Positions 17,137 to 23,857 of a stretch of 64,000 nt of DNA are shown here, in pieces (the stretch's first letter is position 1; each line of letters opens with the position of its first letter). The DNA is from Terriglobales bacterium. GTDB taxonomy: Bacteria > Acidobacteriota > Terriglobia > Terriglobales > Acidobacteriaceae. The DNA is taken from NCBI GenBank assembly GCA_049511995.1, contig JBEKXO010000009.1:2333-66332 (forward strand). The letters are read 5' to 3'. The translations under genes and the position numbers were made by a program. The notes under the pieces are model-generated. The model worked only from the letters and a program-made list of their open reading frames with translations, was not told where the DNA came from and made no database searches.

Positions 17137-19128
17137 TTGATGTTCGGCCGCGAAGAAAAAGTTTCCGCCCTACGGCTCACCGGCGTGCAGTATGTCGTGC
17201 TGTTTATTTTTTTGCTTCTAGCTTATGGACTGTGGCGTCTGCAGGTGATGCACAGCGATGAGTACGCTTTGCTGGCGGAGAAGAACCGGGTTCGCAATGT
17301 ACCGATTCTGGCGCCGCGTGGAAAGATACTCGACCGCGAAGGGCGCGTAATCGTCGATAACTATCCTTCGTTTTCCGCGCTACTGTTGCGCGACTCCACG
17401 CGCGATCTGAATGCGGACGCGGACGCGATTGCCAAAGGGCTGCACTTGAATCCCGATGAAGTGCGGCTGCGCGTGCGACGCTTCGCTTCGATGCCGCAGT
17501 ACCAGCCGATCATCCTCAAAGAAGACATCACTCCTGATGAACTGGCGTTCATCGAGGCGCACAAGAACGAACTGCCCGAACTTGAAACCATCATGGCGCA
17601 CCGGCGCCTTTATCCGCGCAATGGTTTTATGGCGCACCTGATTGGCTACGTGGGCGAGGTCACCGAAGACATGCTTAACCAGCCGCAGTTCGAACTCTAC
17701 ACGCCGGGCGACGTGGTGGGAGTGAGCGGAGTGGAAAAGCAATACAACAACATTCTGATGGGCAAGAACGGTTCGCGGCGTGCGCTGGTGAATAGCCACG
17801 GAAGGGAAGTGGGTCGGCTCGACGAAACTCCGGCGGAGCCGGGCAAGCAGCTCAAGCTGACAGTGGATCTCGATTTGCAGATTGCGGCCGAACAGGCGCT
17901 CGAGGGCAAGAACGGCGCAGTGGTCGCGATGAATCCGCGCAACGGCGAGATACTGGCGATGGTGAGCCGGCCAACCTTCGATCCCAACGATTTTGCAGTA
18001 AAGATTTCGCGGGACGAGTGGAGCAAGCTGGTCGACGATCCTGATCATCCGCTACTGAACAAGGCCATTCAAGCGCAATTGGCGCCTGGGTCGGTGTTCA
18101 AGATCATCATGGCGACGGCCGGTTTGCAGGAAGGAGTTGCGCAAACATTGCAGGTGAATTGCGCGGGCGGCGCTATTTTCTATGGCCGCTATTTCAAGTG
18201 CTGGGTGCTCTCCGAGCATCGCGTGCACGGGCCAGTCGAGATCAGCAAAGCGATTTATCAGTCTTGCGACGTTTTCTTTTATACGCTGGCCGAGAAGCTG
18301 GGCATCGATCGCATCGCCAAGTACGCGACTGCGTTTGGCCTCGGACAGAAGACGGGCATCGATCTGCCGCAGGAGGTCAGCGGGGTGATGCCTTCGGAAG
18401 AATGGAAGATTCGCAACTTCAAACAGAAGTGGTACGCGGGTGAAACCATTTCGGTTGGCATTGGGCAAGGGGCGGTTGCGACCACTCCGATTCAGTTGGC
18501 GCGGGCCATTGGCGCGATTGCCAATGGAGGAGTATTGCAGCGTCCGCACGTCATCAATCCTACGGACTTGCCGGCAAATGTCGTGCCGACCGGCACTTCG
18601 ACTGGTGAAACTCGTGTGCCTATCGATCCCAAGAATTGGGAGCTGATCACCGACGCGATGGCGAATGTGGTTTCGCCCATCGGAACCGCAAACAGCGCGC
18701 ATCTGCAGGGCATCGATTTCGCCGGCAAGACGGGCAGCGCGCAGACCATCAGCAACATGGCCAAAGCCCGTGTTGCGAACGGGAAGACGAAATTCAAAGA
18801 TAATGGATGGTTCGCTGGAGTCGAACCGCGCCGCGATCCCGAGATCGTTGTCTGCGCACTGCTCGAAGAAGGCGAGCACGGATATCTTGCGGCGCGCGTC
18901 GCTTCGCAGGTGATTAAGGCCTACGTCGAAAAACAGCGGCGCCAGCCGACCAAGGTAGCTGGCTCAAGCAGCGGCAAGGTGGAGATTGGCGCGGTATGGA
19001 CGGATTCTGCCGGTGATAGCGATGGAGGCGAGAGCGCTGACGGAAACCATTTGCACGCGGGACGCTTTCTCGTTGATGTGGCGCATAAGCGAGTGCCGCT
19101 GGCGGCGGCCGCGCCGGGTATACACTGA
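17137..19128 (+). CDS. mrdA: penicillin-binding protein 2 (elongasome transpeptidase)
   Basis: An N-terminal TM and PBP dimerisation region are followed by the transpeptidase motifs SVFK, SCD (the SxN position) and KTGSAQ. Confidence 0.9.
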   Translation: MMFGREEKVSALRLTGVQYVVLFIFLLLAYGLWRLQVMHSDEYALLAEKNRVRNVPILAPRGKILDREGRVIVDNYPSFSALLLRDSTRDLNADADAIAKGLHLNPDEVRLRVRRFASMPQYQPIILKEDITPDELAFIEAHKNELPELETIMAHRRLYPRNGFMAHLIGYVGEVTEDMLNQPQFELYTPGDVVGVSGVEKQYNNILMGKNGSRRALVNSHGREVGRLDETPAEPGKQLKLTVDLDLQIAAEQALEGKNGAVVAMNPRNGEILAMVSRPTFDPNDFAVKISRDEWSKLVDDPDHPLLNKAIQAQLAPGSVFKIIMATAGLQEGVAQTLQVNCAGGAIFYGRYFKCWVLSEHRVHGPVEISKAIYQSCDVFFYTLAEKLGIDRIAKYATAFGLGQKTGIDLPQEVSGVMPSEEWKIRNFKQKWYAGETISVGIGQGAVATTPIQLARAIGAIANGGVLQRPHVINPTDLPANVVPTGTSTGETRVPIDPKNWELITDAMANVVSPIGTANSAHLQGIDFAGKTGSAQTISNMAKARVANGKTKFKDNGWFAGVEPRRDPEIVVCALLEEGEHGYLAARVASQVIKAYVEKQRRQPTKVAGSSSGKVEIGAVWTDSAGDSDGGESADGNHLHAGRFLVDVAHKRVPLAAAAPGIH

Positions 19129-19165: not shown

Positions 19166-19702
19166 GTGGCCTTTATGGCGGACAAGGATCCGTTTTTGCG
19201 GTATGGCGTTACCGCCTTCTATCACTTCACAGATAGGCGAAACCTGCCGGCGATTCAGGAGCACGGAGGACTTTATTCGCTTGCGAAACTCCGGGAGAGA
19301 AAGATCGACGTACCAGCGCCGGGAGGCAACGATTGGAGTCATCAAGCGGACGAGCGAGTGGGTCTCGATAGGTACGTGCATCTGTGTTTTCGCGCAAACC
19401 ACCCTATGCTTTTTCGGGCCATGCAGGACGCTAGGATTGCCGTGCCGATTTATCTTGAAATTCATCCCGACGTGATCAGGGTGGATGGGGTGATGTATAC
19501 GGACGACGTATCGAACAAAGCAGGCGTTGAAATTCGCACTCTAGATCGAGCGCGACAAACGGTGGACTTCGAGGTGTTATACACCCGGACGAACTGGAAA
19601 GACCCGGAGATCCAACGACGGTTGCAGCAGGTCGAAAAGTGCGAACTGCTGATCCCAGATCACATCCCCTTGGATCTAATAAGGAATTTTCCTCATGGCT
19701 GA
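19166..19702 (+). CDS. DarT-like (DUF4433-type) ADP-ribosyltransferase, putative toxin
   Basis: Motifs resemble my recollection of Thermus DarT. FYHFTDRRNLPAIQEHGGL compares with YHITHIDNL..IL..G.L. RYVHLCFRANHPML compares with DYVPFYF..RSPML. VMYTDD compares with FVFTD. EKCELLIPDHIP compares with the catalytic QAEFLV. The start is GTG 19166 or ATG 19175. Confidence 0.65.
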   Translation: MAFMADKDPFLRYGVTAFYHFTDRRNLPAIQEHGGLYSLAKLRERKIDVPAPGGNDWSHQADERVGLDRYVHLCFRANHPMLFRAMQDARIAVPIYLEIHPDVIRVDGVMYTDDVSNKAGVEIRTLDRARQTVDFEVLYTRTNWKDPEIQRRLQQVEKCELLIPDHIPLDLIRNFPHG

Positions 19703-20402
19703 AAGACCAATCTTCATCCCGGCACCCGATTCGTCTGAATTGGTTAAAGAGTTATCGATGCGGCTTGTTTGGAGTTCTGGTTTTGCACCGATTCAGAAAA
19801 AAAAGAATGTCGTTGCACTTCACGCCGCAGCTGCAAAGGCGGGATACGCCCCGCTTTTAGAAGTCTCAACCAAATCGGAAGAAAAAATTGGGCAGCGCCT
19901 GAGCGCCTTCAGCTTAAGAGTGCACAGCGACCGATTTGGGAAAATAGCTCTTGAGGCGGCTTTCCAAGGCAGCAAGGTATTCGAGCATGGCGGTCCGTAC
20001 ACGGATCTTTACACCGTTGAGGACGTCAGGGATGCCAAGCGGGACCCACGTCTAAAGGAGTCTGGCGCTCTCAGGGGATTCGAGTTCGAGAATCTGCGAT
20101 TCCCGCTTGAGCCGAAGACCGCGTTCTACGACTGGCTGTACATTGGCGCATTGTATGAGCACCGCGAATGGCTTAGAACTCATATTTTCCACTATGCGGG
20201 ATTCACCGATATCGAATTTAACCCAGAGAAGTCGATCAATTGCCAGGCCCGTTCGTGCGCATTGCTGGTGACGCTGATGAAGAAACAATGGCTTGATGAG
20301 GCTGTCGGTTCGCCAGAGGCTTTCATCGAATTGCTATCGAGGCGGGACTATCGGCCGAGTCACACTTACGCATCGCCCCAGACAGCGATGTTTCGATCCT
20401 GA
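19695..20402 (+). CDS. unknown 235-aa partner of the DarT-like gene (candidate antitoxin or reversal enzyme)
   Basis: ATG 19695 overlaps the upstream stop by 8 nt (ATGGCTGA). AAGGAA lies 8 nt upstream. I can see no macrodomain, NADAR or ARH motif. Notable strings are GFAPIQKKKNVVALHAAA, STKSEEKIGQRLSAF, FYDWLYIGALYEH and FTDIEFNPEKSINCQA. Confidence 0.7.
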   Translation: MAERPIFIPAPDSSELVKELSMRLVWSSGFAPIQKKKNVVALHAAAAKAGYAPLLEVSTKSEEKIGQRLSAFSLRVHSDRFGKIALEAAFQGSKVFEHGGPYTDLYTVEDVRDAKRDPRLKESGALRGFEFENLRFPLEPKTAFYDWLYIGALYEHREWLRTHIFHYAGFTDIEFNPEKSINCQARSCALLVTLMKKQWLDEAVGSPEAFIELLSRRDYRPSHTYASPQTAMFRS

Positions 20403-20440: not shown

Positions 20441-21907
20441 ATGAAGGCCGCTGCCAAACTGGCTCTGGACGGTGCTATTGGGCGCGGGGCAACTTATGCC
20501 GACGCGCGAATAGTTGCGATCCGCAACCGCTCGCTGACCACTAAGAATGGGCGCGTGGGCCATGCCTCGGAGTCGGAGTCGCTCGGGGTCGGCCTGCGCG
20601 TGATCGCCGATGGGGCTTGGGGATTTGCGGCCTCGGCTGACTTGAGCCGCGCCTCGGTGGAGGCAGCGGCGGCGCGGGCGGTGGAGATTGCACGCGCTTC
20701 GGCGCGGGTGAAGCGCGAGAATGTTCGGCTGGCTCCCGAACCGGCGGCGGTGGCGGAGTGGACTACGCCTTATAAGATCGATCCGTTTACTACTTCGGTC
20801 GAGCAGAATCTCGATCTGCTGCTGAAAGTCGATGAGGAGATGCGCGCAGTCGCCGGCGTCACGCTGGCTGAAACGGGCATGAACTTTCAGCGCGAAGAGT
20901 CATGGTTTCTTTCGTCTGAAGGCGCGGACATTCATCAGACAAAATATTCGACGGGCGCGGGCTATACGGCGTATGCGTTTGCCGGGTCCGAGATACAGAA
21001 GCGGTCATATCCGAATTCGTTTGGCGGGCAATGGCAGAATCGCGGCTACGAATTGATCGAAGAGATGCGGTTGCTCGAGAACGCTCGCCGCGTCGGGGAA
21101 GAAGCGGTTGCGCTGCATCATGCGGAGCAATGTCCGGAAGGTACGGCGACAATCATTCTGGATGGATCGCAACTGGGATTGCAGATTCATGAATCGATAG
21201 GGCATCCGATTGAGCTTGATCGCGTGCTGGGGATGGAAGCAAATTTTGCCGGGACGTCGTTTCTTACGCTCGAAAAGCTGGGCCATCTGCGCTATGGAAG
21301 CGAACTGGTGAATGTCGTGGCCGACGCGCGGCAGGAACATGGGCCGGGGCTGGGGACGTTCGCTTATGACGACGAGGGAGTGGCGGCGCAGTCGACTCCG
21401 ATTATTACGAATGGACGCTTCAGCGGATATCTGAGTTCGCGCGAGACGGCGCACACGATTGGCGCCATGCGCTCTGGCGGAACGCTGCGCGCGGAGGGAT
21501 GGAATCGGCTGCCCATGATTCGCATGACCAACGTCAGCATTTTGCCGGGGGAAAAGCGGCTGAGTTTCGAACAGATGATTGCTTCGACCGACGATGGCAT
21601 TTATATGGAGACCAACAAGTCATGGTCGATTGATGACAAGCGCTACAACTTTCAGTTTGGCTGCGAGATCGCTTGGGAGATCAAGCACGGCAAGCGCGTG
21701 CGTATGCTGAAGAATCCTTCGTACTCCGGCATTACGACGGAATTTTGGAATTCTATGGACGCAATCTGCTCGCGCGAGGAGTGGACGCTCTGGGGCACGC
21801 CGAATTGCGGCAAGGGGCAGCCGCAGCAGGTTGTGGGCACGGGGCACGGCGCTAGCCCGGCGCGCTTTCGGAATATTCGCGTCGGGTCGGCGTACAAGGG
21901 AAGCTAG
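20441..21907 (+). CDS. tldD: TldD-family metalloprotease
   Basis: It carries the HExxxH-like TldD signature (LQIHESIGHPIELD) and a C-terminal GxC...G pattern. It is paired with pmbA downstream. Confidence 0.88.
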   Translation: MKAAAKLALDGAIGRGATYADARIVAIRNRSLTTKNGRVGHASESESLGVGLRVIADGAWGFAASADLSRASVEAAAARAVEIARASARVKRENVRLAPEPAAVAEWTTPYKIDPFTTSVEQNLDLLLKVDEEMRAVAGVTLAETGMNFQREESWFLSSEGADIHQTKYSTGAGYTAYAFAGSEIQKRSYPNSFGGQWQNRGYELIEEMRLLENARRVGEEAVALHHAEQCPEGTATIILDGSQLGLQIHESIGHPIELDRVLGMEANFAGTSFLTLEKLGHLRYGSELVNVVADARQEHGPGLGTFAYDDEGVAAQSTPIITNGRFSGYLSSRETAHTIGAMRSGGTLRAEGWNRLPMIRMTNVSILPGEKRLSFEQMIASTDDGIYMETNKSWSIDDKRYNFQFGCEIAWEIKHGKRVRMLKNPSYSGITTEFWNSMDAICSREEWTLWGTPNCGKGQPQQVVGTGHGASPARFRNIRVGSAYKGS

Positions 21908-21950
21908 TTCAGAAGATGTTCACCGCCGAGACGCCGAGGAAAACAAAAAA

Positions 21951-23369
21951 ATGCTTGCGCAGGAAAAAGCCGCCGACATTTTTCACCGGATTCGCCGGCT
22001 TTCGTCCGCCGACGAGGTCGAAGCTATTTTCACCGGCTCCCGCTTTGCATTGACTCGTTTTGCCAATAACACCATTCATCAGAATGTTGAGGAAGAGAAT
22101 TCGGTGGTTTCGATCCGCACGAATTTTGGAGGGCGGACGGCGCGGTCGACGGCGAATCAGTTTGACGATGAGAGTTTGCGGCGGGCAGTAGCGGCTTCGG
22201 AGAGCCTGGCTCGCGTGCAGGAGCCCGATCCTGATTTGCTGCCCATGCCTACTCGCGAAGAAGCGGATTTTTGCGATCCGGTCGAAAAAGCAGCGGACAG
22301 GAGTGTCCGCTCCACACTTGCTTCGCGATTTTTTGAGGAGACTGCGGCCGTTACTCCGGCGGACCGGGCCGAGGTGGTGCAGGGTATCGTGGCCGTTGCT
22401 GACCGGCATGATTCAACTACCGCAGGCATTTATTCGACTTCAGAGTCGCGCGAAGGAATCTTCAACTCGCGCGGTCTGGCGCGCTGGCATCCGCAGACGC
22501 TGGCGGAGATTTCTGTCACCATGCTGGCCAGCGATTCGTCAGGCTGGCAAAAATTAAATTCTCCCGATGTGCGGACTCTCGACGGGGTGCGATTGGCAGA
22601 GACAGCGGCACAAAAGGCAGTGGATTCGGCGCATCCGCGGGAGATTGCGCCGGGGAAGTACACGGTCATTCTCGAACCGGCCGCGGTTCTCGATATTGTG
22701 GGATTTATGTTTTGGGATTACAGCGGCGTGGCGATTCTGGATCAACGTTCATTTTTGAATGACCGGATCGGGACGCAATTGTTTGGCGAAAACATCGATA
22801 TCTGTGACGACGTCGAGCATCCCTTGCAGGCGGGTTCTCGGTTCGATGGCGAAGGCATGCGGCGGCAACGGGTGCCGCTGGTTGAGAACGGAGTGGTGAA
22901 GCGCGTGGTCTATGCGCGCGCCACCGCGAAGAAGATGAAAAAATCGGAGTATGCCGGGAAGGTGGGACCGATCGAAGTCACCGGCCATGGATTTCCTCTG
23001 CCGAATGAAATGGGCGAGATGCCGATGAATATTGTCTTCGGTGCGGCGGAAAAGCCGCAGACCGTTGATCAAATGATCGCCTCCACCGAGCGCGGCGTGC
23101 TGATCACGCGGCTGTGGTACATACGCGAGGTCGATCCTTACGAGAAGATCGTGACTGGGATGACACGCGACGGAACGTTTCTGGTGGAGAATGGCAAGGT
23201 GCAGTGCGGCTTGCGAAACTTCCGCTTCAACGAAAGCCTGATTGCGATGCTGTCGAAGGTCGAAGCGATGAGTGTTCCGGTGCGCGCGTGTGGAGAGGAA
23301 TCGTTCGACATGGTGGTTCCTGGGATGAAGGTGCGGGAGTTCAATTTTACTGAGGGAACGAAGTTTTGA
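21951..23369 (+). CDS. pmbA: PmbA/TldE-family protein
   Basis: Family-typical length and C-terminal region (GVLITRLWYIREVDPY..., TRDGTFLVENGKV). I chose ATG 21951 instead of the track start 21831, which overlaps tldD by 77 nt. Confidence 0.85.
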   Translation: MLAQEKAADIFHRIRRLSSADEVEAIFTGSRFALTRFANNTIHQNVEEENSVVSIRTNFGGRTARSTANQFDDESLRRAVAASESLARVQEPDPDLLPMPTREEADFCDPVEKAADRSVRSTLASRFFEETAAVTPADRAEVVQGIVAVADRHDSTTAGIYSTSESREGIFNSRGLARWHPQTLAEISVTMLASDSSGWQKLNSPDVRTLDGVRLAETAAQKAVDSAHPREIAPGKYTVILEPAAVLDIVGFMFWDYSGVAILDQRSFLNDRIGTQLFGENIDICDDVEHPLQAGSRFDGEGMRRQRVPLVENGVVKRVVYARATAKKMKKSEYAGKVGPIEVTGHGFPLPNEMGEMPMNIVFGAAEKPQTVDQMIASTERGVLITRLWYIREVDPYEKIVTGMTRDGTFLVENGKVQCGLRNFRFNESLIAMLSKVEAMSVPVRACGEESFDMVVPGMKVREFNFTEGTKF

Positions 23370-23450: not shown

Positions 23451-23819
23451 TCAGTTCCCCTGCCGATCGGATTCCACCTTTTTGATTAGGCCTGCCAACA
23501 TTTTCTTGACCTCAATCGTGGAGCTATCCAGTTTCCTGTATTCTTCGTCGCTGAGAAAGCCAAGATCTTTGGCGAAAGGAAATGGTATTCGAGTTCGCTC
23601 GCCGATCCGGCGGCAATATGTAAAAATCGTTGGAGTTCGGCATTGCTACGTTTCCCGCAGCCCTCTGCGATATTGGCGGCGATTCGATGCCGAACACCTG
23701 CGGATCTGACTCGTGAGACCGTAGACTTCCTGTTTAGGAAATTCCGCGGTGTCGCGATAGCTGGCCAGGGTGAGTGCGTGTGCCTTCTCCCAAAGCGTTA
23801 GGTCACGAAAACTCTTCAT
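23451..23819 (-). pseudogene. four-helix-bundle protein (23S rRNA intervening-sequence protein family) disrupted by two compensating frameshifts
   Basis: Frame A reads MKSFRDLTLWEKAHALTLASYRDTAEFPKQEVYGLTSQIRRCSAS and then hits TAG at 23648-23646. The family core IAANIAEGCGKRSNAELQRFLHIAAGSASELEYHFL lies in the +1 frame (23683-23576). The C-terminus AKDLGFLSDEEYRKLDSSTIEVKKMLAGLIKKVESDRQGN* is back in frame A. Confidence 0.8.
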
Positions 23820-23857
23820 GTCGATCTCCAATGGACTGCGACGAGAACCCGACGTGG

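Follow-up and report, generated by a model that had tools for sequence, protein, structure and literature searches.

The closest described systems to the locus reported here are the DarTG1 toxin-antitoxin (TA) pairs, in which a DarT1 toxin is accompanied by a NADAR antitoxin. The structure of this antitoxin family, its catalytic residues, its guanine-N2-ADP-ribose substrate and its role in antitoxicity and phage defence were published in 2023-2024; experiments published in 2023 demonstrated both its guanine-ADPr (G-ADPr) hydrolase activity and its function as an antitoxin (PMC11543638). The crystal structure 8BAT is that of the NADAR of Geobacter/Trichlorobacter lovleyi (Schuller et al. 2023, Mol Cell, PMC11543638). 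DarG1 NADARs of E. coli C7, T. lovleyi and S. fredii hydrolyse G-ADPr and act on neither T-ADPr nor C-ADPr, and all three proteins relieve DarT toxicity in cells. Mutagenesis of the E. coli C7 NADAR revealed that E88, K95 and D171 are required for G-ADPr hydrolysis, that K115 is essential for rescue from toxicity and dispensable for catalysis, and that E173 is dispensable (PMC11543638). An N-terminal extension is the hallmark of DarT1-associated NADARs and was proposed to form a basic groove that binds single-stranded DNA (Schuller et al., PMC11543638). In E. coli, such DarT systems protect against phage through modification of the viral DNA. Published DarT1 members share 35-40% identity among themselves.

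Herein, we analysed a 64,000-nt stretch of a Terriglobales contig, called the window below, which carries a gene pair of this kind. The genes concerned were as follows.

17137-19128, + strand: penicillin-binding-protein-2-like gene (translation read by eye)
19175..19702, + strand: DarT-family DNA ADP-ribosyltransferase gene of a short clade, 175 aa (Pfam PF14487, PADLOC, AF2/Foldseek)
19695..19702, + strand: 8-nt overlap ATGGCTGA, with the NADAR start codon inside the end of darT (sequence)
19695..20402, + strand: NADAR antitoxin gene of the DarG1 type, PF22397, 235 aa (Pfam, 8BAT, AF2 model, conservation)
20441-23369, + strand: tldD/pmbA-like genes (translations read by eye)

According to the results below, we estimate a probability of roughly 0.88 that the two central genes form a DarT-NADAR (DarTG1-type) TA or anti-phage module, in which the NADAR would be a glycohydrolase antitoxin that reverses the DNA ADP-ribosylation by DarT.

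The ORF at 19695..20402 (+) encodes 235 aa followed by a stop codon, and it is clearly a real gene judging from the large number of its homologues. A word-indexed search returned more than 7,700 of them at E<=1e-5, and an exhaustive HMMER scan that covered 1.84 billion cluster representatives gave 1,391 clusters (50% identity) at E<=1e-3, of which 335 reached E<=1e-30. The protein matched the Pfam family PF22397, "DarT1-associated NADAR antitoxin", with E=6.8e-84 and a score of 281 bits (cut-off 27); this was a full-length match, covering positions 1-211 of the 212 in the profile. A phmmer search of the PDB returned one entry, 8BAT (E=3.2e-55, residues 1-215), whose sequence is about 47-50% identical to the window protein. 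The AF2 model (mean pLDDT 82.8, pTM 0.82) was superposed by Foldseek on 8BAT with TM 0.86/0.92, an rmsd of 1.8 Å and 46% identity. It contained the N-terminal beta1-beta2-alpha1 extension (approximately residues 2-48), with strands at 2-9 and 17-24 and a helix at 32-48, and the basic motif Q34-K35-K36-K37 sat in that helix.

The window protein thus belongs to a family that is already known, has a crystal structure and has been characterised biochemically. The original prediction, made from the letters alone, had called the protein an orphan fold and a potentially new enzyme; the Pfam and 8BAT matches contradict the former, and the family's hydrolase activity and antitoxin role, published in 2023 (PMC11543638), contradict the latter. 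The source of the orphan appearance lies in annotation. The identical 235-aa protein is in the databases under the name "hypothetical protein", from a MAG of Terriglobales (Acidobacteriota), with the JGI label DUF6977, and NCBI gives the same name, "hypothetical protein", to the window NADAR and to all 29 plasmid copies. NCBIfam and PADLOC scans of the protein yielded nothing useful, the family being present only in Pfam. Since NCBI names the proteins "hypothetical" and NCBIfam has no model, the family looks orphan, though Pfam has one.

A macrodomain antitoxin of the DarG2 kind was considered and rejected, as no Pfam macrodomain matched at E<=1 and the fold was that of the 8BAT NADAR. The other roles that had been suggested for the protein, an NAD+/ADPr sensor or a pure DNA-binding immunity factor, were set aside as well, an enzyme being much more probable in view of the 8BAT fold and the invariant catalytic residues described below.

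For the conservation analysis, the window protein was aligned with the sequence of 8BAT and with 38 diverse representatives of the clusters, 40 members in all, at 39-68% identity. Invariant in all of them were R4, P5, G29, Q34, L55, S58, G66 and E87, together with K94, Y145, D172, I173, N176, Q184 and A189, and K115 was conserved in at least 90%. The residues E88, K95, D171 and K115 of the E. coli C7 NADAR correspond to E87, K94, D172 and K115 of the window protein; this mapping is a column equivalence through members that carry the published numbering, not through the E. coli C7 sequence itself. Members with E88, K95, K115, D171 and E173 at the E. coli C7 positions, such as a 229-aa metagenomic representative (P0294), fell in the same alignment columns. 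E87, K94 and D172 are therefore the probable catalytic residues of the window NADAR, as judged from alignment.

The five strings on which the original prediction was built were all found in the translation, at residues 29-46, 56-74, 99-106, 144-160 and 170-189. They had been described as conserved-looking, and they do coincide with conserved columns of the 40-member alignment. They had also been read as catalytic or ligand-binding motifs, and this agrees with the positions of two of them: the first, GFAPIQKKKNVVALHAAA, forms the basic helix within the N-terminal extension, whose QKKK motif lies in the proposed single-stranded DNA groove, and the fifth (FTDIEFNP...) includes the catalytic aspartate D172. 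The stretch LEAAFQGSKVFE (residues 86-97), which had been overlooked, carries two of the three catalytic residues, E87 and K94. Of the functions proposed at that stage, an (ADP-ribosyl)-DNA glycohydrolase that partners an ADP-ribosyltransferase (ART) toxin is best supported, by the PF22397 and 8BAT matches and by the retention of the putative catalytic residues, and these same residues and fold favour an enzyme over the sensor and the DNA-binding factor.

The conservation pattern also bears on whether the NADAR might neutralise its toxin mainly by binding it, as in type II systems, with hydrolysis secondary or lost. Such sequestration would fit the behaviour of the E. coli C7 NADAR, in which K115 is needed for rescue and not for catalysis and the K95R variant is active yet fails to rescue (PMC11543638), and the 8-nt overlap of the two genes favours stoichiometric co-production. 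But catalytic residues that are invariant across the family argue for selection on enzyme activity, and non-cognate NADARs rescue cells from DarT1, so that rescue is independent of specific binding to the cognate toxin. We regard sequestration as very unlikely, and the glycohydrolase antitoxin remains the preferred reading.

The upstream gene starts at ATG 19175, with an alternative GTG start at 19166, and ends with the TGA at 19700-19702, so that its last bases overlap the NADAR start codon. The 8-nt overlap suggests that translation of the two reading frames would be coupled. Linkage was assessed in the best 80 related loci from a scan of one genome per GTDB species. In 75 of these 80, a DarT gene immediately preceded the NADAR gene on the same strand, and 64 of the 80 had the ATGnnTGA junction. 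Linkage to ART genes, on which the original prediction depended, is thus borne out among the homologues, and the profile search led to PF22397 rather than to an unrelated housekeeping family. The partner of the window DarT is a NADAR, which is what defines DarTG1 operationally.

In five loci (L001, L019, L033, L047 and L068), the NADAR was intact and no DarT was detected upstream; one of them, L001, is the closest GTDB relative, at 80% identity. Eight others (L018, L027, L036, L061, L066, L069, L072 and L074) had frameshifted or truncated DarT ORFs. These loci may hold orphan antitoxins or decaying toxin genes.

The same linkage decides against a housekeeping N-glycosidase of the YbiA type, that is, a riboflavin-intermediate or motility-associated NADAR that happens to lie beside DarT. 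The fold is distantly YbiA-like, and E. coli YbiA (2B3W) was the second Foldseek match of the model. However, that match was weak (E=0.46, TM 0.37/0.47), the general NADAR/YbiA Pfam model gave no match at E<=1, and DarT linkage in 75 of the 80 best loci, with overlapping reading frames, is difficult to ascribe to chance. We give this reading almost no weight: it is effectively refuted by the linkage counts and by the specific match to PF22397.

The toxin was then compared with characterised DarT proteins. It matched the Pfam DarT family PF14487 with E=2.8e-22 and the PADLOC DarT model with 2.3e-12, and NCBI annotates a protein identical to it as a DarT family protein. The AF2 model had a pLDDT of 89, and at E<1e-4 Foldseek returned DarT structures only, with the model slightly nearer to DarT2 (TMq 0.60-0.68) than to DarT1 (0.59). 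By sequence, the relationship was distant: phmmer with the window toxin alone found no DarT in the PDB, and a profile of its clade reached DarT1 8BAQ only at E=1e-3. The window toxin shared 19% identity with E. coli C7 DarT1 and 24% with a DarT1 from a plasmid, which in turn has 42% identity to the E. coli C7 protein. The window DarT therefore does not cluster in sequence with the characterised DarT1 proteins (19-24% versus the 35-40% found among them).

Two DarT types were distinguished beside PF22397 NADARs. The short clade, about 173-175 aa in length, includes the window toxin and is abundant in Acidobacteriota and rhizobia, and the long type, about 208 aa, occurs on plasmids and shares 32-48% identity with E. 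coli C7 DarT1. Profiles of the two aligned in hhalign with a probability of 96% and an identity of 21%. The relevant residues of the window DarT are H17-F18-T19, the loop P49-G-G-N52-D-W-S55-H-Q-A-D59, M78, S113-N114-K115 and E154-K-C-E157. Across the short clade, H17-F18-T19, M78 (equivalent to M71), the S-N114-K motif and the catalytic E157 (equivalent to E152) are kept; N114 is a plausible equivalent of N104, although the alignments disagree by two residues. The residues R52 and D54, essential in DarT1, aligned to variable columns of the short clade in sequence and profile alignments and have no conserved counterparts there. Where DarT1 has the NDxxRxD loop that bears R52 and D54, the short clade has an invariant PAPGGN-x-W-S-x-x-x-D segment.

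The NADARs in turn fell into two subgroups that co-varied with the toxin type: identity to the window NADAR was 51-82% for those beside short toxins and 40-49% for those beside long toxins. The T. lovleyi NADAR was nearest to the long-toxin partners, as judged from its closest plasmid relatives; no copy of the S. fredii NADAR was found in the plasmid collection. The junctions of long-type loci were inspected in the eight plasmid loci that were fetched, seven of which had a short intergenic gap and one an overlap of a single base.

These differences could mean that the pair shares fold and family with DarTG1 but not its chemistry, the target being a different base or atom, RNA, or a specific sequence context. 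The low identity of the toxin to canonical DarT1s, the model's slight proximity to DarT2, the replacement of the NAD-binding/proton-relay loop by the invariant PAPGGN segment without conserved R52 and D54 equivalents, and the co-variation of the two NADAR subgroups with toxin type would all be in line with this. Against it, the window NADAR retains all of the experimentally defined active-site residues, every NADAR subfamily tested hydrolyses G-ADPr, with the DarG1 types acting on neither T-ADPr nor C-ADPr, and the toxin itself retains H17-F18-T19, M78, the likely N104 equivalent and the catalytic glutamate. We consider a different chemistry improbable, if less so than sequestration.

Somewhat more plausible, though still unlikely in our judgement, is that the DarT-NADAR pair represents a distinct subfamily, characterised by a short toxin, the PAPGGNxWSxxxD loop, the 8-nt overlap and its own NADAR subgroup, whose toxin may differ from canonical DarT1 in catalytic arrangement and possibly in acceptor or sequence preference. 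If so, it would in effect be a third DarT type under the "DarTG1" label. Our literature searches found no experimental work on the short DarT clade and no paper separating the short and long NADAR-linked types, and, apart from an unrelated ARH-like DarG3 that is accompanied by a helicase, they brought up no DarT3 or DarG3 system. NADAR-linked DarTs thus comprise two very different clades, and only the long one is represented among the characterised proteins that were placed. The short clade would be a sensible test of whether base specificity and mechanism are uniform under the "DarT1" label, and it is this partner clade, together with the annotation gap, that holds the remaining interest of the locus.

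Taking the DarTG1-type module as the preferred reading, the following mechanism is proposed. The upstream DarT would transfer ADP-ribose from NAD+ onto a DNA base and thereby block replication. As DarG1 NADARs act on G-ADPr and not on the thymine or cytosine adducts, guanine-N2-ADPr on single-stranded DNA is the most likely substrate, and the modified position would most likely be the N2 amino group of guanine. We infer this guanine specificity of the window DarT from the antitoxin, since the toxin has just 19% identity to its E. coli C7 counterpart and, in sequence and profile alignments, no conserved equivalents of R52 and D54. The NADAR, predicted to be a glycohydrolase whose single domain has an extended YbiA-like fold, would cut the bond between ribose and guanine and restore the DNA. 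E87 and D172 would orient the distal ribose, K94 would hold the diphosphate, and K115 and the basic N-terminal extension with its QKKK helix would engage the DNA, the toxin or both. By analogy with the E. coli systems, the pair may serve in phage defence.

The genomic setting of the pair was further examined. It lies 46 bp downstream of the penicillin-binding-protein-2-like gene (counted from ATG 19175) and 38 bp upstream of the tldD/pmbA-like genes, and the flanking genes are all on the + strand. Scanning around the pair revealed no sigma-70-type promoter, whichever strand was read, nor any + strand terminator. The G+C content of the pair was 52-53% (GC3 58-60%), compared with 57-60% (GC3 64-69%) for the flanks, which is 5-7 points lower, and in the synteny comparison none of the 80 best related loci shared the flanking genes of the window. 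This suggests that the pair was recently inserted, and it may be transcribed by read-through from the upstream cell-wall gene. Farther downstream, a 61-aa ORF (MEIDMKSFRDLTLWEKAHALT...) at 23646-23831 on the - strand resembled, by eye, the N-terminal region of four-helix-bundle proteins of the 23S rRNA intervening-sequence type, and it may be a truncated remnant.

NADAR copies were found on 29 plasmids from many phyla. The low G+C content, the lack of shared flanks and the plasmid copies all fit a horizontally mobile TA or defence module. Among the plasmids, the Lactococcus lactis plasmid pIL105 (L087) and an Acinetobacter lwoffii plasmid (L084), which are small or mobilisable, carry DarT-NADAR pairs of the long type, and that of A. 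lwoffii adjoins a RelE/ParE TA pair. In every RefSeq record inspected, the NADAR was named "hypothetical protein".

It had also been proposed to check whether homologues are fused to ART, macrodomain or nuclease domains. Fusions to an ART do exist, as PF22397 members were found with an N-terminal DarT, and others were fused to DUF4365, HEPN_AbiU2 or DUF5655, whereas no macrodomain or named nuclease domain was present in the 12 long NADAR homologues scanned. Two larger fusions carry the PF22397 NADAR at the C-terminus: an 897-aa protein with an N6/N4 DNA methyltransferase in a Salinispira sp. MAG (L072:4001-6691), where the upstream DarT is truncated, and an 860-aa protein with a UvrD-type helicase in a Sedimentisphaerales MAG (L073:2684-5263), with a DarT upstream. 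The latter is reminiscent of the recently reported helicase-containing DarHTG systems.

Among known systems, YbiA, the stand-alone bacterial NADARs and the NADAR of phage T4 (gp30.3) share with the window protein the core fold of the superfamily and the G-ADPr hydrolase chemistry in vitro. Unlike it, they have neither the basic N-terminal beta-beta-alpha extension nor a linkage to DarT, and neither YbiA nor the phage protein protects cells from DarT1 in vivo. The DarTG2 systems of Thermus and M. tuberculosis, which pair DarT2 with a macrodomain DarG, are likewise TA pairs that write and erase ADP-ribose on the bases of single-stranded DNA, and the window toxin, which has a DarT fold, found its top Foldseek matches among DarT2 structures. 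The antitoxins differ, however: DarG2 is a macrodomain protein that removes thymine-N3-ADPr, whereas the window antitoxin is a NADAR without a macrodomain, and NADARs cannot hydrolyse thymine-N3-ADPr.

Nearer to the window are the DarTG1 systems. E. coli C7 DarTG1, for which the DarT1 structures 8BAQ, 8BAR and 8BAS are available, has the same gene order, with nadar after darT, and an antitoxin of the same family, and all four mutagenised residues E88, K95, K115 and D171 are conserved in the window as E87, K94, K115 and D172. Its toxin is more distant: the window DarT is 19% identical to it, about 30 residues shorter and without recognisable R52 and D54, and F72 of E. coli C7 DarT1 is replaced by L79 in the window toxin and by E in most members of the short clade. 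The T. lovleyi NADAR (8BAT), to judge by its plasmid relatives, belongs to the subgroup that accompanies long toxins (about 208 aa, canonical DarT1), whereas the window NADAR belongs to that of the short toxins (about 175 aa). The two antitoxins have several features in common: both are single-domain proteins (about 234 aa for T. lovleyi) with 47-50% identity over the full length, and they share the extended YbiA-like fold, the catalytic residues and the position directly downstream of DarT.
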